Below, in pieces: positions 22,622-63,976 of a stretch of DNA of 64,000 nt. A program made the translations under genes and the position numbers. Each line of letters opens with the position of its first letter. The stretch's first letter is position 1. This stretch comes from Candidatus Xenobia bacterium. GTDB taxonomy: Bacteria; Vulcanimicrobiota; Xenobia; Xenobiales; QWHO01. Below the pieces are notes generated by a model. It ran no database searches and was not told where the DNA came from. It saw only the letters and a program-made list of their open reading frames with translations. The stretch is from NCBI GenBank assembly GCA_045863235.1, contig BTUM01000027.1, forward strand, positions 1 to 64,000. The letters run 5' to 3'.

Positions 22622-25600
22622 TCAGCGCACCACCAGTCGGTCCGAGCCGCTGCGCCCGAAGGTCTCGGGGTTGTACATCTCCTCGGCCTTGGAGGGCGGC
22701 ACCACGTAGCTCCCGGGCGTGGTGGCCCGGGCCACGTAGGTGTAGTCGTAGACCCCTTCCCAGAGCATCGAGGTGAAGGCTTCCACCCGCTCGTCGCGCA
22801 TGTTCTGGTGCTCGTACCAGGTGCCCATCCAGTACCAGTAGGGCCCGATGGCATCGCGCTGCTTCGGATCCTGAGGCACGGTGCCGGTCACCTTGAGAGC
22901 CGGGTTCAGAGGCTCGAGCCCGGCCGGCAGCGGGTCCACCAGGGCCACATGGTAGCGTCGGTTGGGTGCCACCATCGTCAGGCGCACCCGCACCCGGGCG
23001 CCGGCCTTGACGGTCCACACCCCTTCGGCATCTTGAGCCACGTCGCCCTTGTCGTCCACGGCCTCGTAGCGGCGCTGCACGGTGAAGCCGTGGTCGGCCG
23101 GCTCGAGCTTGAGGTCCTTCGGCGCATAGCGCATCCCGATGCGATAGTAGAGGCGGCCGGGACCCTCCTTGCTGAGCACCAGGTCCTGCTTGCCCTTGCC
23201 TGCCAGCCAGCTCATGGGGACCTCCAGGCCTTTGCGGTCGGGGCTGCGGCCCCGAAAGCGCTGCTCGCCGGCGTACTGCTTGCCCAGCCAGACCCGGGCC
23301 ACGAAGTCGGGCGTGACCTTCTCGTAGGTGTTGAAGTAGCGGTCCATGGCCAGCAGCACGAAGACGTTCTCCTGGGTGTTGAGCCAGCGCCCTTTGGTGC
23401 GGTGGCCCAGCAAGCCCCGCACCAGCTTGGGGATCAGGTCGCTTTTGGGTGAATCCAGGATCAGCGCTTCCAGCAAGATGGCGTCCACCCGACGATCCGA
23501 GTAGAGCAACAGGTGCGGGCCGCTCTCGCCGTAGTCCTGGACGAAGTTGGCCGCCTCGGCCGTCTCAGTGACCCGGTTGTCAAGGTGACGCCGGATAGCG
23601 GCCGCCTCGGGCTCCTTGCTCAGAATGGGCAGGATGAAGCCCAGCGCCTCCAGCGAGAGCTTGTCCACCCCCGCCTCGGCCACCAGCTTCTTGGCCCGGC
23701 TCACGTCCTTGTCGCCGTTGAGGAAACGAACCCAGAGAGCGTAGGCGATGATGGTGCGCCGGCAATCCAGGCCATACCAGTGATGGATGTGGTTCTCCAC
23801 GTCCCGCACGTAGGCCAGGCTACGCTCGAGCATATCACCGGGAATGGCATGCCCCTTCAGTTTGGCCCGCACCAGGGTGTGGGCTACGTGCACACTGAGG
23901 TAGGGCCAGTCTTCCTCGTCGGCACGCCAGAAGCCAAAGCCCCCGTCGGGGCGCTGCATGCCGCGCAGACGCTCGAGATCGAGCTGCACCGACTTCTTGA
24001 CCGCCTCCGGATCAGGCATCTCTTCGCTGCGGAAGGCGGCGAGCACGTCCTGCAGGGCCACGATTCCAAGCACGCGCGAGGAGACCTGCTCGGCGCAACC
24101 GTAGGAATAGGTAACCAGGTAGATCATGGCATCGGTCAGCTCGGCCAGGGCGGTCGAGGTGGTGGTCAACTCCAGGCCTCCGAACTGCTTCCAGACCTCG
24201 CCGGGCGCCTGCACCGGCTGGGCCGTGGCCCCCTCGTCGAGCTGGCCATAGGTAGCGAAGGCCTCGGTGGTGGCCGGCGTCCAGACGGGGAAGCTGAACT
24301 CGCTGGCATCGGAGTTCTTTCCGCTGAAAGCGCCTACCTGGAACGAGGCGGTGCCGGCCGAGTCGGTGCTGACCGGAAAGCGCACCTCGGCCCGGTCGTT
24401 GGCCCTGACCTGGAAGGTCCGGCCCTGGCCCTCGGCCAGGACAGCGTTCTGGGCCCGCACGACCACCTGCACCTCGAGCGGCTGGTCGGTCTGGTTCTGC
24501 ACCACCACCGGCAGCTCGGCCCGGTCGCCGAAGTTCAGGAAGCGCGGAGGCGAGGGGCGCACCATGAGGGGCAGCCGGGCCACCACGCTGGACTCACCTT
24601 TGCCGAACTGGTTGGCACCGGCCACGGCCACGGCCACGATGCGGTAGCGAGTGAGGTTGTCGGGCAGCTTGACGCTGACCCGGGCGGTGCCATCGGCCTT
24701 CGTCCTGACTCGGGGCGCAAACAGCGCCAGGGCTGAAAAGTTCGTGCGCATCTTGACGGGAGGCTGCTGGCTGGCCCCGCCTCCGCCGGCCTCGAGCTTG
24801 GCGCGGCGAGCCACCGGGGCCTTACCCATCTCCTCTTCGGGAGCGGGAGCGGCAGCCGCGCTGGGCATGGGAGCAGCGGCATCCATGACGGCCCCTTCCG
24901 CGTAGCCATTCGCAGTGCGTTGCTCGGCTTGCTCGGAGAGCGAGGCCAGGTCGACCAGCAACACATACTGACGACTGTGCCAGTCGCTCACTCCGGAATC
25001 GCGCTGGGCATAGAACAGGTCCAGCGGATTGGCGATCTGGTACCCGGTGAGAGCCAGCACCGCCTCGTCCACCATCACCAGGGCCACCTCGCTGTCGGGC
25101 ACGTTCTGGCCTTTGGCGTCGGTCACCCGCACGTCCACGTGGGTCTCGGCCCCCGGCTCGAGCCCCTTCTGAGCCGGCAGCACCTCTACCTTGAGCGTGC
25201 GCTCACGGGGCGGCACCGACAAGTTGAGCATACCGGTGGCGTAGGCGGGCCGCTCGGATTTGCCGGAAGCATCGTCCTCGCGCTTGTTCCTGCCCACCAG
25301 GTCAACCTGGGCATACAAATTGGGAATGTGGGCCGACTCCAGGGTCACCTTGAGCACTGTGGAAGGCCCGGTCAGGCTGAAGCGGCGCGTCTCGAGCAGG
25401 CCCGAGCGGCGCAGGGTGAGCACCCCCTCGGCCGGATAGAAGGGCGCCTGCACCAGGATCTGGGCCGTCTCGCCCGGCTGGTAGTCTTTGCGGTCGGGAA
25501 TCAGCACCACTTTCTCCTGGGCCACCCCGCGCTCGGGTACCTGCTTGCCGCCCGGCACCCAGACCGTGAGCTGGCTCTCGTTGGGCCGGTCCTTCTCATC

Positions 25601-28600
25601 GTAAGTACGCACGGTGATCTGGTAGGTGCCCCCGGCCGGCGTCTTGAGGCTGAAATGGGAAGGAGTATCGCCTTTGGAGGCCTCGTCGAAGCTCTGGCGG
25701 TCGGCGTAGACCGTCTGGTAGCGGCCCTTGCGATACTCGTAATCGATGCGGGCCGAGCGCAGCTCGATGGGCCTGCCGGCCAGGGCCTTGCCGGCGGTGT
25801 CGCAGACCAGCACGTCCAACTCGATGGGTTTGCCCTGCTCGACGAAGGTACTGGCTGTCTTGAGCCCCACGTAGGCGTCGGAGGGATGCACCAGGACGCT
25901 GGTGGAGGCGTTCCAGGCCTGCCGGTTGACGTCTTGCACACTGGCTTCGGCCTGCACCACCATGGGCCGGGGCGGCTCCACGCTCGCAAAATCCAGCTTG
26001 AGGCGGTGCACGCCACTCGAATCGGTGCGCCCCTCGAAGGTCTGGGTGGCGTCGGCGGTGGGGCGCACGTAGAAGTCCATGTCCCACCAGGGGGTCCAGG
26101 TGCCGAAGGTGTATTCGTCGCGTCCGGGGGGCTGGAAGGAGCCCTGGGAGGCGCTCACGGCCCAGTCGACCTGGGCGTTGGGCAGGCCGCCCCCGGCGTA
26201 GTAGCTGGCCCTGACCGTGGCCAGAGCGCTCTGACCGATGGAGGAGGTCTCGGGCTCGGCGCTGGCGCTGACCTCGAACTCGGGCCGGCGGAACTCCTGC
26301 ACCTCGAAGGTGTGAGCCGTGCTGCCTCCGGGCGCCAGGCCGGTGGAGAGGTCCAACCGCGAGGTGCCCAGGTTCATGGTCCGGGGAAGCTTCAGCTTGA
26401 GGTCGAAGCCGCCCAGCGGGCTGACCGGGGTCTGGCCCTTCTTGACCTCATTGCCGCGCGAGTCATAGAGGGTCCAGTAAACCTGGGCCTCCCCGCCGGG
26501 GCCGACGGCGGCGATGTCGCCCTTCGGGCCGGCCTGCCAGCGCCGCATCCAGCCTTTGACGAGCACCTCCTCGTCGGGTCGATACATCTTGCGGTCGTCG
26601 AACACGAACCAGCTGAGCCGGTCGTTCTCGGCCATTCTCGACCAACCCGAGCGGTCCCAGGCGTAGACGTTGCGAGGCAGGAACGTGGCGTCCTGGCCCG
26701 AGCGGGCCACCAGGATCTCGCAGCTGTGCGATGGCAGCTCCAGCTTCAGGCTGCCATCGGCGGCGGTGCGGCCGCGGGGGCCACCCAGAAGGCTGACCTC
26801 GGCCTCGCTTACGGGCGAGCCGTCGGCCAGCTTGCTCACGTAGGCCACCAGCGAAGTGGCGTCGTTGGCGGCGTCCAGGCCCAGGTCGGTGACCTGCACC
26901 CAGGTGATGACGCGCTGGGGATACTTCTCCTTGGTTACGGGCTCCACCACGACGATGGCCATGCCCTTGCCAGCCTTGAGAGCCGGCTCCAGAGCCACCT
27001 TGACCTCGGTCAGCTCGTCAGGCTGCACTCCGGTATCCTGGGTGATGTCCACCACCTTCTCGCCGGGGGCCTGGAAGGGACGATCGTAGCTCTGGTCAGT
27101 GAGAGCCTTGAGAAAGTCCGGCCACTGCTCGGGCCCCACGGCGTAAACCTTGACCTTCAGTTTCTGATAGTTGATCAGGTAGAGGGGGAAACCCGGCTTG
27201 TCCTTGGCCTGCAGGGTCACCAGTTGGCCCCCGGGAGCCATGATCTGGGGCTGGGCCGAGCCCACCTTGAAAGTGAGCGACTCGCTCTCGCCGAGCGTCT
27301 GGCCGAAAGTGTCCGGCAGGGAGCCGTCCAGGCGCACGGTGTAGGTCGTGCGGCCTTTGGTCTGGCCTCGCACCCAGAGCACCGAGCCGTTGGCCTCCAC
27401 CTTGAGGCCGGGGAGCTTCGGCTCGACCTTCACCATGGTCTCGGGGTCGAACTTCTCCTCGTCGATCGGGTTGTTGAAACGAATGTAGAAGGGCTGGAGC
27501 GGGCGGCAATCATCCCCCCAGCCGCAGCGGGACTCCTCCACCTCGAGCTTGTCGTAGGTGCGGAAGGAGTAGTTCTGAGCGGCCTCAGTGCGCAGCGGCC
27601 CCTCCGCCGAGGGGGTACCAGGGCCGACGCTGACCGTGTAGCCGGTGGCCGGCTTGAGGGGTGCCGTGGCCTTGAAGACCACCCAGCGCCTCTTCTCCTC
27701 CTCGGAGATCCCCAGGTTGGCGGCTTTGACCTCCTCCTCCGTGGCCAGTCGCACCGAGATGTCGTTGGAAACCTTGACCGTGGCGATCACCTTGGAGGGA
27801 ACCACGTCCTGGTTGAAGCGCAGCCAGAAGAGCGGCTCCAGGGGATGGGGTCCATCGTTGGGCGCAGTGCCCGCCAGGGTGGGCGGCGGGGTCTTGAAGG
27901 TCCAGCGCTCGACGGCGGCCAGCTTGTTGCCGGTGGCCGAGGCGGTGCCGGCCGGCACCTCCACGGTGTACTCCGTGGCCATGGGGAAACGGTGCAACTC
28001 GTGACCCTCGCTCACCAGCCCGCGCGGCTCGAACAACAGGGTCTTGCTACCCACCCAGCGCCAGTTGCCGTCGACCTCGGGGGCCAGGCGCACGGGTATG
28101 CCTTTGGCCAGGGTGTCGGCGTGGGAGGTAACCGCCACCATGGGCTGGGAGAAGGTGACCGAGAGCTGGGGAACCTGCTCCACAGCGCCTTCGGGCGCGT
28201 GGCGCAGCACCTTGAGGGGCCCCGACTCGACCTCCGGCGCCTTCTCCGGGGGCACGGGCGGAGGGAAGGGCTGCTTCTCCACCTTGCCGGCCCGCGGGGC
28301 GGGCAGGGAGCTCTCGCGCAGAGCAAACTCCTGTTTCAGGCCAGGGATCTTCTTTTGAGCCGGCAAGCGGGCGAGCAGCTTCTTGACCTCGGCCTCGCTC
28401 AGGGGTTTTGATTCGGTAGGAGGAGCGGGCGTGCCCCCTCCTCCGGGGGTACCCTCGGACAGGCTGAAAACCAGGCCTTTGGCGGGAGATGCCGTGCTCT
28501 CCGGGGTCTCGGCCGAGCGGGGCCCGCGCGAGCGGGGTCCGGGCGTGCCAGGGCCGGGGGAGCAGCCCCAGACCACCAGTGCGGCCAGGATGCAGAACGA

Positions 28601-28621
28601 GATCAGTCGTGCCCAGCGCAT
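22622..28621 (-). CDS. Bacterial alpha-2-macroglobulin lipoprotein with Ig-like repeats
   Basis: Lipobox VWGC; DRKMYRP, EFRRPEF and LPDNLTRYR MG-domain motifs; thioester motif YGCAEQ; C-terminal AEEMYNPETFGRS. Confidence 0.95.
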   Translation of the reverse strand: MRWARLISFCILAALVVWGCSPGPGTPGPRSRGPRSAETPESTASPAKGLVFSLSEGTPGGGGTPAPPTESKPLSEAEVKKLLARLPAQKKIPGLKQEFALRESSLPAPRAGKVEKQPFPPPVPPEKAPEVESGPLKVLRHAPEGAVEQVPQLSVTFSQPMVAVTSHADTLAKGIPVRLAPEVDGNWRWVGSKTLLFEPRGLVSEGHELHRFPMATEYTVEVPAGTASATGNKLAAVERWTFKTPPPTLAGTAPNDGPHPLEPLFWLRFNQDVVPSKVIATVKVSNDISVRLATEEEVKAANLGISEEEKRRWVVFKATAPLKPATGYTVSVGPGTPSAEGPLRTEAAQNYSFRTYDKLEVEESRCGWGDDCRPLQPFYIRFNNPIDEEKFDPETMVKVEPKLPGLKVEANGSVLWVRGQTKGRTTYTVRLDGSLPDTFGQTLGESESLTFKVGSAQPQIMAPGGQLVTLQAKDKPGFPLYLINYQKLKVKVYAVGPEQWPDFLKALTDQSYDRPFQAPGEKVVDITQDTGVQPDELTEVKVALEPALKAGKGMAIVVVEPVTKEKYPQRVITWVQVTDLGLDAANDATSLVAYVSKLADGSPVSEAEVSLLGGPRGRTAADGSLKLELPSHSCEILVARSGQDATFLPRNVYAWDRSGWSRMAENDRLSWFVFDDRKMYRPDEEVLVKGWMRRWQAGPKGDIAAVGPGGEAQVYWTLYDSRGNEVKKGQTPVSPLGGFDLKLKLPRTMNLGTSRLDLSTGLAPGGSTAHTFEVQEFRRPEFEVSASAEPETSSIGQSALATVRASYYAGGGLPNAQVDWAVSASQGSFQPPGRDEYTFGTWTPWWDMDFYVRPTADATQTFEGRTDSSGVHRLKLDFASVEPPRPMVVQAEASVQDVNRQAWNASTSVLVHPSDAYVGLKTASTFVEQGKPIELDVLVCDTAGKALAGRPIELRSARIDYEYRKGRYQTVYADRQSFDEASKGDTPSHFSLKTPAGGTYQITVRTYDEKDRPNESQLTVWVPGGKQVPERGVAQEKVVLIPDRKDYQPGETAQILVQAPFYPAEGVLTLRRSGLLETRRFSLTGPSTVLKVTLESAHIPNLYAQVDLVGRNKREDDASGKSERPAYATGMLNLSVPPRERTLKVEVLPAQKGLEPGAETHVDVRVTDAKGQNVPDSEVALVMVDEAVLALTGYQIANPLDLFYAQRDSGVSDWHSRQYVLLVDLASLSEQAEQRTANGYAEGAVMDAAAPMPSAAAAPAPEEEMGKAPVARRAKLEAGGGGASQQPPVKMRTNFSALALFAPRVRTKADGTARVSVKLPDNLTRYRIVAVAVAGANQFGKGESSVVARLPLMVRPSPPRFLNFGDRAELPVVVQNQTDQPLEVQVVVRAQNAVLAEGQGRTFQVRANDRAEVRFPVSTDSAGTASFQVGAFSGKNSDASEFSFPVWTPATTEAFATYGQLDEGATAQPVQAPGEVWKQFGGLELTTTSTALAELTDAMIYLVTYSYGCAEQVSSRVLGIVALQDVLAAFRSEEMPDPEAVKKSVQLDLERLRGMQRPDGGFGFWRADEEDWPYLSVHVAHTLVRAKLKGHAIPGDMLERSLAYVRDVENHIHHWYGLDCRRTIIAYALWVRFLNGDKDVSRAKKLVAEAGVDKLSLEALGFILPILSKEPEAAAIRRHLDNRVTETAEAANFVQDYGESGPHLLLYSDRRVDAILLEALILDSPKSDLIPKLVRGLLGHRTKGRWLNTQENVFVLLAMDRYFNTYEKVTPDFVARVWLGKQYAGEQRFRGRSPDRKGLEVPMSWLAGKGKQDLVLSKEGPGRLYYRIGMRYAPKDLKLEPADHGFTVQRRYEAVDDKGDVAQDAEGVWTVKAGARVRVRLTMVAPNRRYHVALVDPLPAGLEPLNPALKVTGTVPQDPKQRDAIGPYWYWMGTWYEHQNMRDERVEAFTSMLWEGVYDYTYVARATTPGSYVVPPSKAEEMYNPETFGRSGSDRLVVR

Positions 28622-51115: not shown

Positions 51116-51925
51116 TTAGCGCAGGACGCGGCGAGAGCCGATGTATGTACGCCGATAGTAATCCTCGCGCAGGCTGCTGACGCAGACCCCACGGGAGGAT
51201 GAGGCGTGAATGAACTTTCCATCGCCGAGGTAGATGCCTACATGGGACGGACCGGGGAGGTAGGTCTCGAAGAAGACCAGGTCGCCCGGCTGCTCCTGGC
51301 CACGGGCTACGCCCACGCCAGCGTTGAACTGGACGTCGGCGGTGCGGGGCAACCGGATTCCGTTCATGGCAAAGACGCGCTGGGTGAATCCCGAACAGTC
51401 GATCCCTCGAGCGGTCGTGCCCCCCATTACGTAAGGAGTGCCCATGAAGCCGTTGGCGCTACGAATCACGCTGGAAACCAGGCGGCCACGCCGCGAGCCC
51501 GCCAGGGAATGCCGGTCGCCGCTGCGGTCGAGTCCAGGCTCGTAGGCCATCTCGACCACTCGACCATCCGGGCCGATGATGCGCCGGAGTTGCTCGGGCT
51601 TGGCGTCGATCTTGATCAGGTGCGCAGCCGGCGGCTCGGCATCGAGACCTGCGATCACAAGCGGATCCTGCACTTGCTCGGTTCCCGAGCCGACTTCGTC
51701 GGCCGTCGGCAGCACGAGCACCGTGCCGGCCGTCAGAGCATCAGACTTCTTCAGGCCAGGGTTGGCCTGCAAAATTGCATTGACATTGAGGCTGTGAGCC
51801 TTGGCAATTTTGGTCAGAGTGTCGGTGGCGCGAACCGAGTAGAGTATTTCGGCTCGGGCCGGGGCCATCAGGGCCAGCAATCCCAGCACCATGACGGCAT
51901 TCTTGAGGCGGACATTGATCCTCAA
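51116..51925 (-). CDS. LysM + NlpC/P60 peptidoglycan endopeptidase
   Basis: Signal peptide; LysM YSVRATDTLTKIA; GTPYVMGG..GIDCSG, PGDLVFF, SHVGIY, FIHASS. Confidence 0.93.
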   Translation of the reverse strand: MRINVRLKNAVMVLGLLALMAPARAEILYSVRATDTLTKIAKAHSLNVNAILQANPGLKKSDALTAGTVLVLPTADEVGSGTEQVQDPLVIAGLDAEPPAAHLIKIDAKPEQLRRIIGPDGRVVEMAYEPGLDRSGDRHSLAGSRRGRLVSSVIRSANGFMGTPYVMGGTTARGIDCSGFTQRVFAMNGIRLPRTADVQFNAGVGVARGQEQPGDLVFFETYLPGPSHVGIYLGDGKFIHASSSRGVCVSSLREDYYRRTYIGSRRVLR

Positions 51926-52765: not shown

Positions 52766-53644
52766 TTACTTGAGCAGCCCCTTCATGGGCTCGAACAGGC
52801 TGTCCTGAAGCCCGGCATTCACCTTGACCCCGCGATAGACCCGTGCCTGACGCAGAACCTGGTCGACGTAAATCTCCAGCCGCATGGGAAGATAGCGACC
52901 GTCTTCGAGTTGCTTGATGTCGCGGTAGACGACCTTCTTTTCACCGGGCCCGCTGGAGCCTTCGCCCTTGACCTTCACGACGAGTTGCAGGGGCACACGC
53001 CGAGCCGGGTCGATCCAGACCCGCGTCGGCAGGTCGGGGTGCTCAGGATTGGAGATCTCCACCACTTTTACGGGAATGCCCTCGAAAGACTCCGAGCCCA
53101 CCAGCTTGTAGTCGTCATTGGCGTCGTGGGGATACTTCTGCAGACTGAAGGGGAGCTGCAAGCTCGGCTGCTGAGTATCGGCCCCCTTCTTGACGGGGTA
53201 CTGGCCCATGGAGATGAACATCCACATGTTGCTGCCATCGCGAATGATGACGGCTTGCTTACCATCGAGTTGAGTGCCGGGCTCGTGGAACACGGTATCC
53301 ACTCGAAGTCGATTGGGAAACTTGTAGTAAACCCGGTCGGTGCCGGAAGGAAGGAGGTTTCCCACCCCATCCTGCTCGACCAGTTCGCTGCACTCGATCT
53401 CCAGAATCAGGTCGCGAATGGGCAATCCCTGAGCTGGCGTGTAGAGATTGTCAACCAGCTGACGGGCTTCGCTGGAAGAGACTCCGGGGACCGGGCCGGG
53501 GACTGGAGAGCCTGTCGCAGTTGGGGAGGCGGCGGGATTGGATGGGCCGGTCACACGACCGCTGGGGTAGTTTTGAGCCAGAGCTGGCCAGCCGGCCAGA
53601 CACAAAAGCAGGGCGAGACACAGGACCATCGACCTGGAGTACAC
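52766..53644 (-). CDS. Secreted LolA-like fold protein (outer-membrane lipoprotein-sorting family)
   Basis: Signal peptide; YYKFPNRLRVD, IRDGSNMWM, RVWIDP and KVNAGLQDSLF pattern. Confidence 0.75.
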   Translation of the reverse strand: MYSRSMVLCLALLLCLAGWPALAQNYPSGRVTGPSNPAASPTATGSPVPGPVPGVSSSEARQLVDNLYTPAQGLPIRDLILEIECSELVEQDGVGNLLPSGTDRVYYKFPNRLRVDTVFHEPGTQLDGKQAVIIRDGSNMWMFISMGQYPVKKGADTQQPSLQLPFSLQKYPHDANDDYKLVGSESFEGIPVKVVEISNPEHPDLPTRVWIDPARRVPLQLVVKVKGEGSSGPGEKKVVYRDIKQLEDGRYLPMRLEIYVDQVLRQARVYRGVKVNAGLQDSLFEPMKGLLK

Positions 53645-53790: not shown

Positions 53791-54279
53791 GTGAGCGAGC
53801 AGGCGGGCGACCAGACACTTCAAGATCCGTCCATGAGCAAGCTGAAGGCACAACTGCCGCAAGAAACTGCTCAGGCGCCTGAGCCCGAGCGGGTGAATGA
53901 GCGCCTGATTCAGCTGGAGGATGCTGCTCGCAAGACAGCCGAGGGTGAGTGGTCGGCTGAAGAGCTTGGCGAGTTCCTGGACGGCATCATTCGCATTCTC
54001 AACGAGCGCGAGCAGCAGATCCGCGAGATCGAGATTCCCCCTGAGGCCGTGGAGGACTTTCGTGAGGAGCTCGAGGTCGGCTTCTCCGGTATCCAGCTCT
54101 ACACCGAGGGCGTCCAGCGCATGCTGCTGTTCGTGGAAGACCCCAACCCGGCGCACCTGGAGGAAGGGCTCGAGCTGGCGCGCCAGGGCAATGACCACAT
54201 CAACGAGGCCATGCGCATCAACCGCGAGAATCGCCGCAAGCTCGAAGAAATGTACATCGACGCCTCCACCATGATGTAA
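53791..54279 (+). CDS. Acidic helical bundle hypothetical protein
   Basis: GGAGGA RBS before GTG; paralog of the 52244 product and of the 41934 repeats. Confidence 0.85.
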   Translation: MSEQAGDQTLQDPSMSKLKAQLPQETAQAPEPERVNERLIQLEDAARKTAEGEWSAEELGEFLDGIIRILNEREQQIREIEIPPEAVEDFREELEVGFSGIQLYTEGVQRMLLFVEDPNPAHLEEGLELARQGNDHINEAMRINRENRRKLEEMYIDASTMM

Positions 54280-55799: not shown

Positions 55800-55881
55800 A
55801 GTATACCAGCCTGCGCTGAAGGCGTAAACGTCGAGTTTGTTTCCAAACTGTAAACAGATGGCCAATCCGATAAATGTTAAA
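55800..55881 (-). promoter_or_regulatory. Promoter TTTACG-N17-TATACT with upstream GTTTACA/TTTAACA boxes
   Basis: -35 at 55823-55828; extended -10 at 55800-55805; boxes at 55849-55855 and 55875-55881. Confidence 0.65.
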
Positions 55882-55985: not shown

Positions 55986-56231
55986 CTAGCTCTTGATGTA
56001 GTCGCTCCATTTGTTGAACATCTTGTCCTGCGTCTTGGCCTGGTTGACGGTCACGTCCTGCTGAATCTCGAAAATCTTCGTCTGTGTCTCGCGCAGAATC
56101 TTCCAGCGCTCGGCCTGCTGCTTTTGCGTATCGGCCATCATCTGGGTCTGAATGGTCTGGGCCTGCATCTGGTCGCTCAGGGCCATCTGGGCGATCGAGG
56201 CGGCGTTGGCGGCTCCACCGATGAGTAACAT
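55986..56231 (-). CDS. 81-aa Gln/Ala/Met-rich helical protein, copy 3
   Basis: Protein identical to copies 1 and 2; AGGAGG RBS. Confidence 0.92.
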   Translation of the reverse strand: MLLIGGAANAASIAQMALSDQMQAQTIQTQMMADTQKQQAERWKILRETQTKIFEIQQDVTVNQAKTQDKMFNKWSDYIKS

Positions 56232-56284
56232 GGTCGGTCCCTCCTGATTCTCTCTCTATCCCTCAAAAGTAGACGAAAGCTCTG

Positions 56285-56324
56285 AAAAAAAGCTGAGGGG
56301 CCGGCCTTGCGACCGACCCCGCAG
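56285..56324 (-). terminator. Intrinsic terminator after copy 2
   Basis: Minus strand GGGGTCGGTC-GCAA-GGCCGGCCCC followed closely by T7. Confidence 0.75.
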
Positions 56325-56349
56325 AGAAAGCCCCACCCGATACAGGGAC

Positions 56350-56595
56350 TTAGCTCTTGATATAGTCGCTCCACTTGTTGAACATCTTGTCCTGCGTCTT
56401 GGCCTGGTTGACCGTGACGTCCTGCTGAATTTCGAAGATCTTGGTCTGCGTCTCGCGCAGAATCTTCCAGCGCTCGGCCTGCTGCTTCTGCGTATCGGCC
56501 ATCATCTGGGTCTGAATGGTCTGGGCCTGCATCTGGTCGCTCAGGGCCATCTGGGCGATCGAGGCGGCGTTGGCTGCTCCACCAATGAGTAGCAT
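56350..56595 (-). CDS. 81-aa helical protein, copy 2
   Basis: GGAGG RBS; own promoter-like TTTACT-N17-GATAGA at 56647-56675. Confidence 0.92.
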   Translation of the reverse strand: MLLIGGAANAASIAQMALSDQMQAQTIQTQMMADTQKQQAERWKILRETQTKIFEIQQDVTVNQAKTQDKMFNKWSDYIKS

Positions 56596-56805
56596 TGTTT
56601 TCGGTCCTCCCGGGTGTGTTATTTTTGACTTCTCTGTCTTGGGACTTCTATCACGCGCCCGGGCCGGAAAGTAAAGATGCTTGTCTCTGTATCCGGGCAG
56701 TTTTCCTGAGGACGGCGGGTGACTTGCCGACCCGGCCGCAAGGCCGGGTCTGCAACCGAAAACGGCTCGACCTCGCGGCCGAGCCGGCTTGAAGCGGACC
56801 TGAGC

Positions 56806-57051
56806 CTAGCTCTTGATGTAGTCGCTCCACTTGTTGAACATCTTGTCCTGCGTCTTGGCCTGGTTGACCGTGACGTCCTGCTGAATTTCAAAGATCTTCG
56901 TCTGGGTCTCACGCAGAATCTTCCAGCGCTCGGCCTGTTGCTTCTGCGTGTCGGCCATCATCTGGGTCTGGATGGTCTGGGCCTGCATCTGGTCACTCAG
57001 GGCCATCTGGGCAATTGAAGCTGCGTTGGCTGCACCACCGATTAAGAGCAT
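56806..57051 (-). CDS. 81-aa helical protein, copy 1
   Basis: Identical protein with the most divergent synonymous codons; hairpin at 56729-56750 downstream. Confidence 0.92.
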   Translation of the reverse strand: MLLIGGAANAASIAQMALSDQMQAQTIQTQMMADTQKQQAERWKILRETQTKIFEIQQDVTVNQAKTQDKMFNKWSDYIKS

Positions 57052-57087: not shown

Positions 57088-57144
57088 ATTATCCCATCCC
57101 ACCTCAACAAAGTAAAGACCAATGTTTGCAAACATTTTGTTAAC
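57088..57144 (-). promoter_or_regulatory. Promoter TTTACT-N17-GATAAT plus 16-bp palindrome and GTTAACA box
   Basis: -10 at 57088-57093; -35 at 57111-57116; perfect palindrome AATGTTTGCAAACATT at 57121-57136; GTTAACA at 57138-57144. Confidence 0.65.
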
Positions 57145-57161: not shown

Positions 57162-57476
57162 TCAATCCACGTGCGTCTGGTTCACAACCAGTTTGACGCC
57201 TGCCGCCTTGAGGTCTTCCACCAGCTTCTCGTTGTTCTCGTAGAGGGTCAGCACGGTGGCGTCGCGGGCGGCCGTGACCACCACCTCCATCATTTCCAGA
57301 AAGAGCTTGGGATCCACCGAGGGGGACTCGGAAAGGCGCTTGAGCAGGTCGGTGTTCTGGGGACGCTTCATCTCCCGGGCCCAGCTCTCGAGATACATCC
57401 GATTGAAGATGCTGAGCATCGCGGGGGCGCTGAGGCCGAGCTGACCTTCCAGATCGCTGGCGGTGGCTTCTTCCAT
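57162..57476 (-). CDS. Hypothetical 104-aa acidic helical protein
   Basis: AGGAGG RBS inside the end of the aminotransferase gene; last gene of the flhB-flhA run. Confidence 0.8.
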   Translation of the reverse strand: MEEATASDLEGQLGLSAPAMLSIFNRMYLESWAREMKRPQNTDLLKRLSESPSVDPKLFLEMMEVVVTAARDATVLTLYENNEKLVEDLKAAGVKLVVNQTHVD

Positions 57477-57482
57477 GTCGAG

Positions 57483-58829
57483 CTACCTCCTGACCACCGA
57501 GTTGATGCGGTTGGCGATATCCATCAAGTAACCGTTGATTCCCTGAGGCCCAATCTTTTGCATGTGATCGAAGAGAGAACGCCAGGTCTCCAGCAGATGC
57601 TTGAGGTCGGCGTCGCTCGAGACATAGGGAGGCGACACTCGGATCACCTCAGGGCAGTGCACCATCGAGGTGAGCAGGATGCTGTGCTCCTCGCGAATCA
57701 TCTCCTGCACGGTCAGGCCGACAGCTGGAGCCGTCGTGCACAGGCAGCGCATCAATCCCACGCCCCGATGGCCTACGGCAAGGTCCGGGAAGTCGCGGCA
57801 CAGCTCGTCGAAGCCCTTCTCGAGGAGATTGCCCAGATGGGCTGAGCGCTCGACCAGTTTCTCGCTCTCGAGCGCATCCAGGGTGGCCACACCGGCCGCG
57901 CAGGCCAGCGGATTGCCGGCAAAGGTCGAGTTATTGAAGAGGGGTCGCGCCTCCTCGGCGGCCCGAACTCGGGCCGAGTAGAGCACGGCTGAAACCGGGC
58001 AGACCGCGCCCGACAAAACTTTGCCGACACAGATCAGATCGGGCACCACTCCTGAGGCGTCCAGCGCGAACCAGCGGCCGGTGCGACCAAGTCCCGACTG
58101 GATCTCATCGGCGATCAGCAGGGCTCCGTGAGCATCGCAGAGAGCCCTGACCCGCCGCAGGTACTCGGGAGTGGCTACCGAGCAACCGGAAGCCCACTGG
58201 ACCGGCTCGAGAATCACGGCGGCCACATCCGGTCCCATGGCCTTCTCGAGCGCGGCAACGTCCAGGAAGGGGACGATGGTCGCGTCGCTCAAGTTGGGCG
58301 TGCCGCTCTTCCAGTAATCGATGCCTCCCACGCTGAGGGTGCCGATCGACATTCCATGGTAGCCCATGTGCATGCCGATGAAACGGGGGCGTCCGGTCGC
58401 CAGGCGCGCCAGCTTCAACGCCGCCTCCACCGCCTCCGTTCCCGAGTTGAGGAAGGCGCAGAAGGGCAGATTCCCCGGCACTCGCGCCGAAAGTCGAGCG
58501 GCCAGAACAGCTTGACCGGGCACGATGCCGGCTCGGGTCGAGAGCGCGGCGCGCTCGAGCTGTCGCTTCACTGCCTCGATCACTTTGGGATGCGCATGGC
58601 CCAGCCCGAAGGTACCCCCCGCACCCATGCAGTCATAGTAACGACGACCCCGAGGATCGATGAGATAGGCGCCTTCCCCCCGCCACTCGACCAGGGCGCT
58701 GCCCAGAGCCCGCAAAGAGCGAGCCAGGGTGGGATTCATGTGCCTCTCCTGCAGGTCGAGCTGGTCGGCCAGCAACTGGGCGTACTCGGCTTCGTCGAGA
58801 ACCTCGGGATAGTCCAACCAATCGCGCAT
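57483..58829 (-). CDS. Class III PLP aminotransferase (putrescine/ornithine aminotransferase-like)
   Basis: NSGTEAVEAALK, GYHG, ILEPVQ, DEIQSGLGRTG, GK and STFAGNP motifs. Confidence 0.9.
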   Translation of the reverse strand: MRDWLDYPEVLDEAEYAQLLADQLDLQERHMNPTLARSLRALGSALVEWRGEGAYLIDPRGRRYYDCMGAGGTFGLGHAHPKVIEAVKRQLERAALSTRAGIVPGQAVLAARLSARVPGNLPFCAFLNSGTEAVEAALKLARLATGRPRFIGMHMGYHGMSIGTLSVGGIDYWKSGTPNLSDATIVPFLDVAALEKAMGPDVAAVILEPVQWASGCSVATPEYLRRVRALCDAHGALLIADEIQSGLGRTGRWFALDASGVVPDLICVGKVLSGAVCPVSAVLYSARVRAAEEARPLFNNSTFAGNPLACAAGVATLDALESEKLVERSAHLGNLLEKGFDELCRDFPDLAVGHRGVGLMRCLCTTAPAVGLTVQEMIREEHSILLTSMVHCPEVIRVSPPYVSSDADLKHLLETWRSLFDHMQKIGPQGINGYLMDIANRINSVVRR

Positions 58830-58841
58830 GTGGGCCCTTCC

Positions 58842-60701
58842 TCAACGCACGGCGGCGATCAGCTCGCTCACCATGGTGTAGCGGTTTTTTCCGAACGGAG
58901 GGATCAGGTACACCCCCCGAATCTTCTTGCGAATCCGTGCCAGGAGGTCGTTTGTCAGCTCCATCGCCAGTTTCTGGCCATCCTCCGGTGTCTCAACCTT
59001 CTCGTACTGCGCCAGAATCTCCTCGGGTATGACGATTCCGGGGATCTTGCCGGCGGCGAAGAACTCGGCATTTCGTCGACTGGTGATGGGCAAAATGCCA
59101 ACCAGGATGGGAATCGGGAGATGGGCGGTGGCCTCCAGCATCATGTCCACCTCCAACTCACGGTAGACCGGCTGGGTATAGATGAACTGCGCTCCCGCTT
59201 CCACCTTCTGCTCCAGCCATTTGAGCTGAGCCTTGTGCCCGCGGCCGGGGTTAAAGCCCCCTCCGATCATGAAGTCGCACCGGCAGCAGGGGGCCTGATT
59301 GAAAAGGCGACCCGCATTCATGCTCTTGATCAGGCGCATGAGGTTGACCGAGCTCTTGAGGTCGTTGACCCTGGAGGAGTACTTATCGTGGTCGCCCACA
59401 TTGGGATGGTCGCCTGTCACGGCCAGCACCGCCCGGATGCCGGCGTGCCAGGCGCCCAGCAGATAGGATTGCACCGCGACTAGATTGCGATTGCAGGCCG
59501 AAAGATGGATCATGGTCGGGATCTGCGTCTCGCGCTGCATCTGGGCCGCCGACACCAGCGGGTCCACGGTCACCTTGGCCCCAGCATTATCGGGCACGTC
59601 AAAAAGGTGGGCACCCTCCTGAGCAAGCTTCTTGCCAGCCTCGAGAAAGCTGGTCAGGGAATGCTCGCGGTTGGGGCGCATCTCGACCGAGATGACGAAA
59701 TCGACGCTTTTAAAGACCTGCTCGAAGGGATTGGGCTCCTGCACCGCCTCGGGAGCGGGGGCAACCACCTCCTGCACCCGTAGCGCACTGGGATGGCGCT
59801 CGGCGGGGGGCTTGAGACCCTCGACAGCCTGCTTGAGCATGGCGATGTGCGCCGGCTCGGTGCCACAGCAACCGCCTACGATACAGGCACCCGCTTCGAC
59901 CAGGCGCTTGCCGAACCGCTGGAACTGTTCGGGATTGACATGGTAGACCACGCGGCCCCGGTCGATCTCGGGCGAGCCGGCATTGGGCATGGCCACCAGC
60001 GGCAGGTGGGTGAACTGAGCCAGGCGCTGGATGGTTTCCAGAACATCGTAAGGTGCTCGGCAGTTGGCCCCCATCAGATGGGCGCCCAGTCGGGTGGCCA
60101 GCAACGCGAACTCACTGATGTCAGCTCCGGTGCCGGTTTTCCCGTTCTGGACTCCGCCCACCTCGAACAGCACTGGAACCCCGAAAGAAACGGCCTCGCG
60201 CAGGGCCGCCTGGGCCTCATAGAGCGACTGAAAGGTTTCCAGAGCCAGGAAGTCGACGCCGGCCTGCACCAGGGCCTCCATCTGCTCGTTGAAGATGGCC
60301 GCCACTTCGCTCTCTTCATACTCGTGGCGAATGTGGTGAATCTCGAGTGGGCCCACCGAGCCTCCCACGAACCGCTCGGGACCGGCGCACTCGCGGGCCA
60401 TCCTGACCCCCTCGATGTTGATCTCGCGGACCTCGTTGGCCAGCCCATGGCGGGCCAGCTTGATGGAGTTGGCTCCGTAGGTATTGGTGAGGAGAATGTC
60501 GGCACCCACCTCCACGTAAGAGCGGTGCACGGCCATCACCAACTGGCGATAGAGCGGGTCGAGGTTGAGGCCGTCCAGGCATTCGTGCCCGGCCCCGCGC
60601 AGACCCTGAAGCCGGGTGCCCATGGCCCCATCGCAGACCAGGACCCTGGTCTTGATGGCTTCCAGCAGCGTTTTCTTCGCAGTGATGGGCGCTTCCCACA
60701 T
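58842..60701 (-). CDS. yitJ: Bifunctional homocysteine S-methyltransferase / methylenetetrahydrofolate reductase
   Basis: DGAMGT, GANC, PNAG and GGCCG Zn motifs; C-terminal MTHFR with CNRN, TGD and KVEAGAQFIYTQPVY. Confidence 0.92.
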   Translation of the reverse strand: MWEAPITAKKTLLEAIKTRVLVCDGAMGTRLQGLRGAGHECLDGLNLDPLYRQLVMAVHRSYVEVGADILLTNTYGANSIKLARHGLANEVREINIEGVRMARECAGPERFVGGSVGPLEIHHIRHEYEESEVAAIFNEQMEALVQAGVDFLALETFQSLYEAQAALREAVSFGVPVLFEVGGVQNGKTGTGADISEFALLATRLGAHLMGANCRAPYDVLETIQRLAQFTHLPLVAMPNAGSPEIDRGRVVYHVNPEQFQRFGKRLVEAGACIVGGCCGTEPAHIAMLKQAVEGLKPPAERHPSALRVQEVVAPAPEAVQEPNPFEQVFKSVDFVISVEMRPNREHSLTSFLEAGKKLAQEGAHLFDVPDNAGAKVTVDPLVSAAQMQRETQIPTMIHLSACNRNLVAVQSYLLGAWHAGIRAVLAVTGDHPNVGDHDKYSSRVNDLKSSVNLMRLIKSMNAGRLFNQAPCCRCDFMIGGGFNPGRGHKAQLKWLEQKVEAGAQFIYTQPVYRELEVDMMLEATAHLPIPILVGILPITSRRNAEFFAAGKIPGIVIPEEILAQYEKVETPEDGQKLAMELTNDLLARIRKKIRGVYLIPPFGKNRYTMVSELIAAVR

Positions 60702-60719: not shown

Positions 60720-62858
60720 TTAGACCTGGACCATTCCCACCGAGTTGACGTTGACTTTTGGGGCGATTTCGTTCCAAGAGAGCAGCACCAGGTTGGGGAA
60801 GGAGCGCTCGGTCAATTTGCGCAGGGCCGAGCGAACCGGGGGTGAGCACAACAAGATCGGCTGGAGGCCGCGCTCCTGCAACTGCTGCACCTGGCCCGAG
60901 ATGGCCTGCAGGATCTCCTGGCCGGTATTGGGGTCCAGGGTCAGGAACGAGCCCGCCTCAGTGCGCTGGATGGCCGACTGGATGACCTGCTCGATGGACG
61001 GGTCGAGCGTGATCACGTTGATCGTGCCCTCATTGTTCATGTACTCTTTGCAGATCACCCGGCTGAGAGCCACCCGCACGAACTCGGTGAGCATCTCAGG
61101 GTCTTTGGTGATGTGCACGTTGTCGGCCAGTGTCTCCAGAATGGTGACCAGGTCGCGGATGGAGACCCGTTCTTTGACCAGATTCTGGAGCACCTTCTGA
61201 ACTTCGCCCAGGGTCAGGGCGTCGGGGATGACCTCCTTGACCACGGCCGGGTGGGTCTTCTTGACGGTGTCGATGAGGGCCTGAACCTCCTGGCGGCCGA
61301 GCAGCTCGTTGGCGTGGCCGCGCACGACCTCGGTCAATTGGGTCGCCACCACGCTCACCGGGTCGAAGATCATACAACCGAGCCGCTCGGCGTCGCCACG
61401 CTGCTCGGGCGAGATCCAGACGCCGGGCATGCCGTAGGTCGGGTCGACCGTCTTGGTGCCGCGCAGATTCTTCAGCTTCTCTTCCGGGCCGATGGCCAGG
61501 AACTGATTGATCTGAACCTCGCCCTGAGCCACCTCGATCTCCTTGATCTTGATGACGTAGGCATTGGGCTTGAGCTGCAAGTTGTCGCGGAAGCGCACAC
61601 CGGGAACCACGATACCGAGCTCGAGGGCGATGTGACGACGAATCGAGGTGACGCGCTCGAGTAGCTTGGCGCCCTGGTTGGGGTCCACCAGAGAGAGGAG
61701 GCCGCGTCCCACTTCCAGCGAGATGGGGTCGACCTGCATCAACTGCACGACGCTCTCTGGCTTCTTGACCTCGGCCTTCTTCTTCTGGTCTTGCTCCTGG
61801 GCCTGAACGTCGGCAACCTGGACCGACTTCTTGGTCAGAATCGTGCCCACGAAGAACATCAGGCCGCCCAGGCAGAAGAAGGGAAGTGGCGGGAAGGCAA
61901 ACAGCCCTACCACTCCCAGACCCCCGAGCAGGATCATAAAGCCGGCAGCCATTTTGAGCGCGCCCGGCTGGGCGGTGATCTGGCGGGTCACGTCGGAGCC
62001 CAGGTTGGAGTCGGAAGCGGCGCGCGAGACCACCATACCCATCGAGGTCGACATCAAGAAGGCGGGAAGCGTGGTGATGAGGCCGTTTCCGATGGAAAGA
62101 ATGGCGTAGATGTTGATGGCGTGGCCAGCCGACATCTTGTGGTAGAGCACGCCCACCAGGATGCCGCCGATCACGTTCACGACCATGATGACGATGGCCG
62201 CCATCGCGTCGCCTTTGACGAACTTGCCGGCACCGTCCATAGCGCCGTAGAAGTCGGCTTCCTTTTCGATCTGGCGCCGTTTGTTCTTGGCGCCTTCGGC
62301 ATCGATCAGGCCAGCGTGCAGGTCGGCGTCGATGGCCATCTGTTTACCGGGCATCGCGTCCAGGGTGAAGCGGGCGGCCACCTGGGCGATACGCTCGGCA
62401 CCGTTGGTGATCACCATCAGCTGAATGATGATCAAGATGATGAACATGATGAAGCCGACGACCAGGTTGCCGCCTACCACGACCTCACCGAAGGCGGGGA
62501 TCAGGTGGCCGGCGCCGATGGGCTTCTTGCTGACCGGGTCGAGCACGTTGCCGTGCAGCAGGATCATACGCGTGGCCGACACGTCCAGGGCCAGCCGGAA
62601 GAGGGTGGCCACCAGCAGCAGGGTCGGGAAGACGGCGAATTCGAGGGGCTCGGCGATGTAGATCGAGATCAGGATGGTGATCAAGGAGCCGGCGATGTTC
62701 ACCACCAGCAGAAGGTCCAAGAAGTCGGGCGGCATGGGCACGATCAGCATCATCACGATGCCGATCACGACCACGGCGATGCCGATGTCTGAGAACTTTA
62801 AAAGCTTGAGTAATGGATGGTCGGGTAAGCCGTCAGCTGGGTTCGGTTGTCCGGCCAT
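60720..62858 (-). CDS. flhA: Type III export gate protein FlhA/SctV
   Basis: FPTLLLVATLFRL, GAERIAQVAARFTLDAMPGKQMAIDADL, FYGAMDGAGKFVKGDA; large cytoplasmic domain. Confidence 0.96.
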   Translation of the reverse strand: MAGQPNPADGLPDHPLLKLLKFSDIGIAVVVIGIVMMLIVPMPPDFLDLLLVVNIAGSLITILISIYIAEPLEFAVFPTLLLVATLFRLALDVSATRMILLHGNVLDPVSKKPIGAGHLIPAFGEVVVGGNLVVGFIMFIILIIIQLMVITNGAERIAQVAARFTLDAMPGKQMAIDADLHAGLIDAEGAKNKRRQIEKEADFYGAMDGAGKFVKGDAMAAIVIMVVNVIGGILVGVLYHKMSAGHAINIYAILSIGNGLITTLPAFLMSTSMGMVVSRAASDSNLGSDVTRQITAQPGALKMAAGFMILLGGLGVVGLFAFPPLPFFCLGGLMFFVGTILTKKSVQVADVQAQEQDQKKKAEVKKPESVVQLMQVDPISLEVGRGLLSLVDPNQGAKLLERVTSIRRHIALELGIVVPGVRFRDNLQLKPNAYVIKIKEIEVAQGEVQINQFLAIGPEEKLKNLRGTKTVDPTYGMPGVWISPEQRGDAERLGCMIFDPVSVVATQLTEVVRGHANELLGRQEVQALIDTVKKTHPAVVKEVIPDALTLGEVQKVLQNLVKERVSIRDLVTILETLADNVHITKDPEMLTEFVRVALSRVICKEYMNNEGTINVITLDPSIEQVIQSAIQRTEAGSFLTLDPNTGQEILQAISGQVQQLQERGLQPILLCSPPVRSALRKLTERSFPNLVLLSWNEIAPKVNVNSVGMVQV

Positions 62859-62875: not shown

Positions 62876-63976
62876 TCATCGCCGCGCCCCGGTCTTGCCG
62901 CGCCGCCGCTTCATCTCGCGTTTTCGTTTCAACTTGATCACGTAGGCCAGCACCTCGGCCACCGCCTTGTAGAGCTCGGTGGGGATGGCCTGGCCCACCT
63001 CGCAGGCTCCGAACAGCGTTCGCGCCAGCTCGACGTTCTCGATGATGGGTACGTCGTGGTCCTCAGCCTTGACCTTGATCTGCTGGGCCACCAGGTTCTC
63101 CCCCTTGGCCACGACCATGGGAACCGGATCGACCCCGGTTTCGTACTTCAGGGCAATGGCCAGATGGGTAGGGTTGGTCACCACCGCCGAGGAGTTGGGC
63201 ACCTCCTCCATCATGCGGCCCTGGGCGCCCTGGCGCATGAGCTGGCGCATCTTGGCCTTGACCTGAGGGTTCCCCTCGGTATCCTTATACTCGTCTTTCA
63301 ACTCTTGCATGCTCATGCGCATCTGCTTCATGAACTGCTTGTACTGGAACAAGTAGTCGAGAATGGAGAGAGCCGTCATGCCGATCAGCACCTGGAAGGT
63401 GAGGCGCACCAGAATCGTCTTCACCAGGGCGATGGTCTGGTTGAGGTCCATCTGCGGGGAGGCAGCGAACTTGGGCAACTCGCCCTTGACGCACTTGTAG
63501 CAGATCCAGCCGATAACCACCACTTTCAGGATCTGCTTGACCAGTTCCATGACCGACTTCATGGAGAAGATCCGCTTGAACCCCTCGATGGGGTTGATCT
63601 TGCTCAAGGACGGCTTGAGGGGCTCGACCGTAAACAGAAACTTGACCTGGGCTACGTTGGCCAGAATGGCCATGATGAACACCGAGGCCAGCAGTGGGGC
63701 CAGCACGATGAGCACGGTGCCCATCATCAACATCGATTCGCCCATCAGGTTGCGCTCGTTCATCTGGAAAGTGGGGATCAGCATCCAGATGTACTTGGTG
63801 TAGTCGATGATGCGGGCGAGCATCATCTTGCCGCAGGTCAGCAGCACCCCGTAGCAGGCCAGCAGAAGCAGCGTGGAGATGATCTCCTGGCTCTTCAGTA
63901 CCTGGCCTTTCTTGCGCGCTTCCTGGAGCTTATGCTCGGTCGGTTCCTCGGTCTTGTCACTGTCGCTGCCGCCCAC
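62876..63976 (-). CDS. flhB: Type III export switch protein FlhB/SctU
   Basis: DKTEEPT..KL.EARKKGQ, EYKDTEGNP, NPTH autocleavage site, IPTELYKAVAEVL. Confidence 0.96.
   Translation of the reverse strand: MGGSDSDKTEEPTEHKLQEARKKGQVLKSQEIISTLLLLACYGVLLTCGKMMLARIIDYTKYIWMLIPTFQMNERNLMGESMLMMGTVLIVLAPLLASVFIMAILANVAQVKFLFTVEPLKPSLSKINPIEGFKRIFSMKSVMELVKQILKVVVIGWICYKCVKGELPKFAASPQMDLNQTIALVKTILVRLTFQVLIGMTALSILDYLFQYKQFMKQMRMSMQELKDEYKDTEGNPQVKAKMRQLMRQGAQGRMMEEVPNSSAVVTNPTHLAIALKYETGVDPVPMVVAKGENLVAQQIKVKAEDHDVPIIENVELARTLFGACEVGQAIPTELYKAVAEVLAYVIKLKRKREMKRRRGKTGARR

Follow-up and report, generated by a model that had tools for sequence, protein, structure and literature searches.

A motor-less type III apparatus with a probable filament subunit of its own in Candidatus Xenobia

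Introduction

The known type III export machines fall into two forms, flagella and injectisomes; needle subunits fold as a helical hairpin. The step between flagellum and injectisome has few living witnesses. In a published model, the injectisome arose by losing motility genes before a secretin was captured, and the Myxococcales systems, which are without FlgBCDEK, FliE and FliG, are descendants of this intermediate (PMC3459982, in excerpt). These atypical systems, which are secretin-less and non-motile and occur in free-living bacteria, have been linked to prey killing (PMC10469934, PMC12248157, both in part). Flagellar export genes can also be kept and used without a functional flagellin, as in Lysobacter enzymogenes OH11, a single-strain remnant of one flagellar system (PMC7688988, in excerpt). 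The Xanthomonas pilin HrpE is mainly helical; its secretion signal is in the N-terminal half, which is variable, whereas the C-terminal half is conserved (PMC6026121, in excerpt).

In the little-studied phylum to which Candidatus Xenobia belongs, the one cultured member is a diderm without flagella or a flagellin gene (PMC9758169, in part), and marine members have been suggested to behave as predators and are also predicted to be motile (PMC9259500, in part). Here, we describe a flagellar-type operon from this class that ends in three copies of a small helical protein gene. The system is likewise secretin-less, non-motile and present in free-living bacteria, as in the Myxococcales, yet it keeps most of the parts that those systems are without, and unlike the export genes of OH11 it is an old duplicate whose conservation spans the class and reaches further, and it has a multi-copy subunit family to itself. 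We found no description of the system or of the family in full-text literature searches, on which unseen supplements and subscription journals may bear, nor in the accessible portions of PMC9259500, PMC11484240, PMC9758169, PMC10469934, PMC12248157 and PMC10284905.

Results

Three tandem genes encode one invariant protein

The window analyzed here is the whole 64,000-nt stretch of DNA from contig BTUM01000027.1 (C27 below; assembly GCA_045863235.1, genome G000, 8.36 Mb in 166 contigs, 97.6% complete), and samples that contain it come mostly from digesters, sludge and bioreactors. A preliminary description of the window had reported three tandem genes for an identical protein with only silent differences between them, and had quoted distinct 5′ codon spellings for the three; ORF translation gave one product that is 100% identical across the copies (Table 1), and the spellings matched the quotation. 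The copy pairs differ at 19, 23, and 13 positions over 246 nt, none of which changes a residue. With approximately 46.5 synonymous and 196.5 non-synonymous sites, the pairwise dS (Jukes-Cantor, JC) was 0.54, 0.81, and 0.32 and dN was 0, and the probability of all differences being silent under neutrality was 1e-13, 3e-17, and 3e-9 (the pairs are not independent). This pairwise dN/dS check, with a dN of 0 against a dS of 0.3–0.8, upheld the purifying selection that had been proposed.

It had also been argued that the triplet was neither an assembly artefact nor a very recent duplication, and both arguments were borne out. Contigs of run X1 cross the spacer at 56232–56349, and contigs of runs X2 and X7 cross the one at 56596–56805, where run X2 comes from another strain, with 44 differences over 3,268 nt; this check drew on 4 of the 21 listed runs, leaving out runs with a small share, run X1 may be the same sample as the source of the assembly, and each listed contig covers fewer than all three copies. 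The triplet also occurs in all three congeners with the locus in view (G021, G022, and G023), where the copies show 0–1 residue differences over the 75 residues compared, and a fourth congener (65% complete) has two family matches; together, the crossed spacers and the congeners exclude an artefact. Copy 1 is orthologous in G000, G021, and G023, at 5–9 of 225 nt apart, and this orthology across species, along with the dS values, ruled out a very recent duplication. Copies 2 and 3 lie only 4 of 225 nt apart in G021 and 9 nt apart in G023, and G022 has one residue change that is common to its three copies and absent from the other species. From these patterns within genomes, we concluded that selection and gene conversion both act here, with conversion contributing beside purifying selection. 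Taken alone, the triplet is an ordinary gene-dosage arrangement.

The hairpins described after copies 1 and 2 were present, and the hairpin scan found none after copy 3. A sigma-70 scan returned two sites against a shuffle mean of 0.4 (Table 1). Of the promoter boxes described in the spacers, those of copy 1 were recovered by the scan and those of copy 2 by eye (boxes as in copy 1, with 17-nt spacing), but the similar boxes of copy 3 have only 7 nt between them, which is the wrong spacing. The very high expression that had been expected found a weak hint in one RNA run, in which a contig spanning copy 1, the spacer and copy 2 had a depth of 81 compared with 2–14 for the seven other listed contigs, but the second of the two RNA runs examined showed no depth peak over the subunit genes; contig depth cannot rank genes, and we did not use it as an expression measure.

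Table 1. Positions of the subunit genes, their operon partners and neighbors, and associated signals (window numbering).
Feature	Position	Strand	Remarks
FlhB	62876..63976	-	Operon member
FlhA	60720..62858	-	Passes the flagellar FlhA cut-off, not the SctV cut-off
Homocysteine methyltransferase/MTHFR fusion	58842..60701	-	Often kept in the operon across loci
Class III aminotransferase	57483..58829	-	Often kept between flhA and the subunit gene
104-aa three-helix protein	57162..57476	-	Conserved, directly 5′ of the subunit gene in most loci
Sigma-70-like promoter site 5′ of copy 1	57088..57116	-	Consensus match only
Subunit gene copy 1	56806..57051	-	81 aa; ORF translation, single predicted helix, without a Pfam or NCBIfam family
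Terminator-like hairpin after copy 1	56763..56786	-	Hairpin scan
Subunit gene copy 2	56350..56595	-	ORF translation identical to copy 1
Terminator-like hairpin after copy 2	56297..56320	-	Hairpin scan
Subunit gene copy 3	55986..56231	-	ORF translation identical to copy 1
Sigma-70-like promoter site 5′ of the long paralogue	55800..55828	-	Consensus match only
Long paralogue, about 473 aa	54348..55769	-	Gly/Pro-rich low-complexity body and C-terminal divergent subunit domain (41% identity)
162-aa protein	53791..54279	+	Conserved cluster neighbor across the class
LolA/RseB-like periplasmic protein	52766..53644	-	Conserved neighbor
LysM-NlpC/P60 peptidoglycan hydrolase	51116..51925	-	Conserved neighbor

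The triplet ends a flagellar-type operon

The triplet ends a Bacillus-type flagellar operon on the same strand, which extends past the window to C27:79252 and has the same gene order from flgB to flhA as the fla/che operon of Bacillus velezensis. The genes run flgB, flgC, fliE, fliF, two FliG-like ORFs, fliH, fliI, fliJ, a lytic transglycosylase gene, fliK, a short flgE-like (hook-like, 271-aa) gene, fliM, two fliN, fliO, fliP, two fliQ, fliR, flhB, and flhA, and after flhA come the methyltransferase/MTHFR gene, the aminotransferase gene, the 104-aa gene, the triplet, and the 473-aa gene. The tandem fliQ genes lie at L001:796-1385 (64796-65385 in window numbering) and the two FliG-like ORFs at L001:10318-12130. 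Genes for flgF, flgG, and the rod-binding flgJ are located on a separate contig, C74. Compared with the Bacillus order, the slots of flgD, fliL, and cheY are empty. FlhA, FlhB, FliI, FliF, and FliP all pass flagellar NCBIfam cut-offs and not the injectisome ones. The preliminary description had overlooked this flagellin-less, motor-less type III operon 5′ of the triplet.

Several neighbors may have accessory roles. The long paralogue, a counterpart of which is present 3′ of the subunit gene in most syntenic loci, is a candidate minor, tip or cargo-bearing subunit, and the 104-aa protein is a candidate chaperone of the subunit; a fold search with the latter gave a best Z of 7.6 and none at 8, with matches to generic helical bundles. 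The methyltransferase/MTHFR and aminotransferase genes, which travel with the operon in many loci, perhaps serve to modify the filament. The MTHFR gene also occurs inside the clusters of family f14. Elsewhere in G000, five proteins have the FlhA cytoplasmic domain only (C80:28012-29436, C3:26973-28175, C1:377631-378872, C107:13658-15829, and C106:14866-16857), and genomes of the class each have between 1 and about 17 such FlhA-partial matches; these proteins might act as adaptors of the export gate or as variants for docking at it. The window also encodes a 1,999-aa bacterial alpha-2-macroglobulin at 22622-28621, which is unrelated to the subunit finding.

The genome has no recognizable flagellin, hook-filament junction or stator

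Pfam models for Flagellin_N, MotB_plug, FlgI, and FlgD found nothing in G000, while each was found in 3–4 of 14 control genomes. We also searched G000 by tblastn (E 1e-4) using the Pfam-named proteins of a true flagellum from G005, and obtained no match for FliC, FlgL, FlgK, FliD, FlgM, FlgA, FlgH, FlgI, FlgD or FliW, nor for the two MotA and one of the MotB proteins of G005. The second G005 MotB had a weak match (E 4e-8), G005 FlgE matched the rod gene flgG, and the single MotA/ExbB match of G000 adjoins genes that we read as exbD- and tonB-like. Two sigma-factor-like genes at G000:C11:114004-115563 resemble, at 39% and 36%, the sigma-factor-like genes next to the G005 motile flagellum and are possible regulators of the export system.

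Judged as a motile flagellum, the system is thus without flagellin, FlgK/FlgL/FliD, MotA/MotB, FlgD, and the L and P rings, and it has the rod, FliE, MS ring, C ring, export gate, and ATPase. Judged as a non-flagellar T3SS, it has no linked SctC, as the three secretin matches in G000 are on C26, C145, and C70, with none on C27 or C74, although one of these may yet serve the system, and it retains the rod, FliE, and FliG, which such systems have lost.

The subunit resembles Hrp pilins in layout

The structure model of the subunit is one straight helix spanning residues 3–80 (pLDDT 82, pTM 0.42), unlike the hairpin of needle subunits. The protein is polar along its whole length, and in the family alignment its N-terminus is variable and all 18 invariant columns lie at residue 20 or later, so that it shares with HrpE the layout of a variable start and a conserved end. 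Identity of the subunit is fixed within the genus and falls to 60–90% across families. We found no Pfam, NCBIfam or PDB-sequence family for it (best PDB E 0.4) and no Pfam HrpA or needle match at E 10, and Foldseek gave no match to the single-helix model, which says little for one helix. Among the best 120 of 199 matched homologues, none had a Pfam family, and the close named ones were labelled Ca. Eremiobacterota, Vulcanimicrobiota, Ca. Xenobium or Ca. Bruticola, apart from a few with other labels on metagenome bins; these labels suggest the class Xenobia for the host. Of the nine family matches in G000 itself, three are the triplet, three are close stand-alone paralogues at other sites, and the last three are longer or weaker. 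The scattered matches lie at C78:33076-33312, C69:19357-19557, C3:179378-179629, C74:12551-12952, and C12:22793-23317; the close ones are 64–89% identical to the subunit and are possible alternative subunits.

Language-model comparison pointed toward Hrp proteins. The neighbors of the window protein were two HrpA pilin sets (0.91 and 0.90, with the HrpA name carried by 23–24% of their members) and HrpE (0.88), and for a strongly diverged member, among named clusters, six of six listed neighbors were T3SS pilus or needle proteins (HrpA, HrpE, SctF pilus, needle; 0.89–0.78). Scores below 0.9 serve only as leads here, and 4–10 of 100 shuffled proteins also attain 0.9. Against the family profile, AscF, HrpA, and two annotated SctF proteins scored 3–5 bits, values matched by 3–19 of 200 shuffles, and flagellins and rod proteins also scored at shuffle level. 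A search for HrpA among plasmids yielded nine records, a set too narrow for profile-profile comparison. Because Hrp pilins diverge fast, we take the missing homology to SctF and HrpA to lower the case for membership of those families, not the case for likeness to them.

The system is conserved across the class, beside separate motile flagella

In a survey of 44 genomes of the class, the subunit family was present in 38 and FHIPEP in all 44 (in some as fragments only), while flagellin was found in 10 and MotB in 12, namely those 10 and two with weak matches. These genomes are kin rather than independent samples, and the counts given here and below are patterns, not tests. All six family-negative genomes belong to one genus, and the four of them that we examined have an 80–81-aa ORF in the same slot that scores on a broader profile. 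In family f3, whose smallest genomes are about 2 Mb, the subunit was present in 19 of 19 and flagellin in none of 19. The rod domain occurs exactly four times in 22 of the 24 flagellin-less genomes of at least 90% completeness (five times and once in the other two) and 5–13 times in the nine flagellated genomes, counts from which we concluded that flagellated members carry a second, separate basal-body set. A complete second flagellar set, stator included, is kept in 10 genomes of the class.

Window-type flhA was present at 15 of 20 loci, and at 14 of these a family member lies just downstream; four of the 14 members are divergent (12–16 bits), and for the two tested, 0 of 200 shuffles scored as high. 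At the fifteenth locus, that of G005, the block has been relocated. No family member was found at three true-flagellum loci or at two loci of a third flhA paralogue.

The family was present in 43 of 201 genomes sampled across the phylum, two of which are unpublished (G173 and G208) and served for the tallies alone, but in 0 of 125 from family f14 and 0 of 16 from f18. Outside the class, 10 window-type loci held four clear members, one weak member and, at five (some ended by the contig), none. Genomes of f14 and f18 have a reduced, fast-evolving related cluster (L103-L108, L114, L115, and L158-L160), which is often followed by secD/secF; no subunit was detected at eight loci of this cluster, there was no FliG nearby at two f14 loci, and full-length FlhA was present in 108 of the 125 f14 genomes sampled. 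Lone full-length flhA paralogues of the same clade also occur away from export genes (L047:13641-15758, L056:3891-6008, L121:7784-9853, and L122:8488-10584), and one sits after the ATP synthase operon.

Trees disagree on the origin of the export system

In every tree, the system formed its own clade apart from the motile flagella of the phylum; 10 of the 44 class genomes have both. Its deeper placement varied with the method. FastTree with 72 FlhA sequences nested it with Bacillus and the phylum's flagella (0.999), whereas a site-heterogeneous model of 26 of the 72 placed the system, together with long f14/f18 rows, on the SctV side (95/94); the FastTree grouping was not rejected (AU p 0.053), and without the two long f14/f18 rows the backbone collapsed, as did that of the FliI tree, from which four redundant rows were dropped. 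Quick six-gene trees joined the system to the phylum's flagella (94 with 21 of 34 systems, 84 with 17 of 34), but a careful six-gene tree with 17 of the 34 systems joined it to Sct proteins (68/93, in 66% of bootstraps), a grouping that was not rejected (AU p 0.68). These trees sampled 3–5 proteobacterial injectisomes and neither Myxococcota (and so none of the Myxococcales systems) nor Chlamydiota, and long branches are in play. Since the better models disagreed with the nested FastTree result, we did not take the latter as settled; the system may be either an independent exaptation of a flagellum or sister to injectisomes.

The subunit motif is fused to other domains in other bacteria

A profile search of 1.84 billion representatives returned 439 clusters at E 0.001. 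Among the 149 new top matches, 40 are of at most 100 aa, and another 80 exceed that length and have the motif at their extreme C-terminus, with fusion partners that include TIR, CHAT, RHS, VgrG, and autotransporter domains (11 of the 32 scanned had a family). In Acidobacteriota, all eight fusions scanned are TIR_2 proteins (L064, L065, L081, L082, L086, L087, L092, and L093, with the match near position 8000, or near 5200 in L064), and the ninth protein scanned, which has PAAR, lies within a T6SS cluster (L083:7044-8189). Five such genomes that we checked have one match each, and three of the five are without FlhA. Animal NAIP sensors detect needle proteins. The TIR-fused motif is perhaps a decoy sensor that clusters on incoming subunit; alternatively, one reading of the fused motif would be a general assembly tag.

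Discussion

The operon described here encodes what is probably a motor-less type III apparatus that has not been described before, together with a likely filament subunit. It differs from a bacterial flagellum in that no flagellin, FlgK, FlgL, FliD, FlgD, FlgM, FlgA/H/I or MotAB was found. It is like an injectisome in that the motor is lost and a small helical subunit of 77–90 aa, with a variable N-terminus and a conserved C-terminus, is encoded in the cluster, in that the model neighbors of this subunit are HrpA, HrpE, and SctF clusters, and in that its export gate falls with Sct proteins in two of the best-model trees. It is unlike an injectisome in keeping FlgB/C/F/G, FliE, FliG, FliM, FliO, and a full FliF, in having no linked secretin and core parts that score below the Sct cut-offs, and in having a subunit without detectable homology to SctF or HrpA. 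The system thus qualifies as neither flagellum nor injectisome, and most likely works like a pilus-building T3SS.

We consider it probable that the 81-aa protein is the major filament (pilus or needle) subunit of this non-motile, flagellum-derived type III system. The preliminary description had called it a polymer subunit, and this stands as the best reading, drawn from context and likeness. The subunit would leave through the export gate, led by its variable N-terminus, pass the rod and the short hook, and polymerize via its conserved C-terminal helix into a hollow filament, which the long paralogue would join as a minor, tip or cargo-bearing subunit, while the 104-aa neighbor may hold the subunit monomeric inside the cell. 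Three gene copies with their terminators would supply the amount of subunit that a filament needs, and contacts in the filament lattice would fix the protein while silent sites drift, partly homogenized by conversion. The likely use would be to make contact with the cells of prey or hosts, or to deliver protein into them. Some observations fit such a filament less well: there is no linked outer-membrane exit (no FlgH/FlgI, and the secretins are on other contigs), though the phylum has a diderm as its cultured member; paralogues also lie dispersed outside the operon; some bacteria without FlhA have the motif in their proteins; and outside the class a member is clear at only 4 of 10 window-type loci.

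The lack of an L/P ring and of a linked secretin would be expected if the exported polymer were confined to the envelope, as a periplasmic structure that extends the rod or hook or forms a plug, without any long external filament, and a periplasmic needle-like structure has been proposed for the ancestral injectisome (PMC3459982, in part). We find this unlikely, as such a structure would need few subunits, leaving the two to three near-identical tandem copies in many genomes unexplained, and every one of the usual rod genes is retained.

Effectors and translocators tend to vary rapidly, whereas the subunit is fixed within its genus and conserved across families, is polar throughout, and has pilins as its nearest language-model neighbors. 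These properties make it quite unlikely, in our judgment, that the protein is a secreted substrate rather than a conduit (an abundant effector, a pore former or a translocon-like protein, in which case the long paralogues would be additional substrates), even though L. enzymogenes OH11 is reported to export toxic proteins by its flagellar system without flagellin (PMC7688988, in excerpt) and the motif is carried on PAAR, VgrG, and RHS proteins elsewhere.

The longer proteins with the motif at their extreme C-terminus, and the Acidobacteriota TIR fusions, three of five of them in genomes without FlhA, would also fit a general self-assembling cytoplasmic signal module that clusters TIR/CHAT partners, in which case the adjacency to flhA would be regulatory or historical. 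We regard this as very improbable: the host lineage keeps stand-alone copies fixed beside flhA, and the single match in each of the five Acidobacteriota genomes checked means that no partner with the same motif is encoded there. Finally, a cryptic motile flagellum in which the subunit replaces flagellin and an unrecognized stator drives rotation is scarcely credible, for although FliG, FliM, and FliN are kept and core parts pass flagellar cut-offs, no MotA/MotB was found by family, the sequences of a relative match at most weakly, FliL and CheY are absent from the operon and present in the Bacillus one, and 10 genomes keep a complete second flagellar set with a stator of its own.

Returning to the filament subunit as our preferred reading, the system could be a living intermediate from flagellum to injectisome, sister to all non-flagellar T3SS, in which motor and flagellin were lost and an 80-aa filament subunit was gained, with the rod, a hook remnant and the FliG/M/N ring kept and no secretin. 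That this holds and that prey (e.g., Acidobacteriota) also use a TIR-fused assembly helix as a co-assembling decoy that triggers defence is a combination we put forward tentatively and consider rather unlikely.

Throughout the class, a complete basal body without motor or flagellin is retained, even in genomes of 2.2–2.6 Mb, along with a multi-copy subunit family that has no annotation. Annotation tools label the core of the system as flagellar, which can give these bacteria a motile appearance. Judging by the TIR, CHAT, PAAR, and VgrG fusions, other bacteria may react to this filament or exploit it. Beside flagella and the needles of pathogens, the system may represent a third kind of type III secretion apparatus, and it would be either a second conversion of flagella to a filament-building secretion device or the closest known relative of the injectisome ancestor; both origins make the origin of the needle testable.
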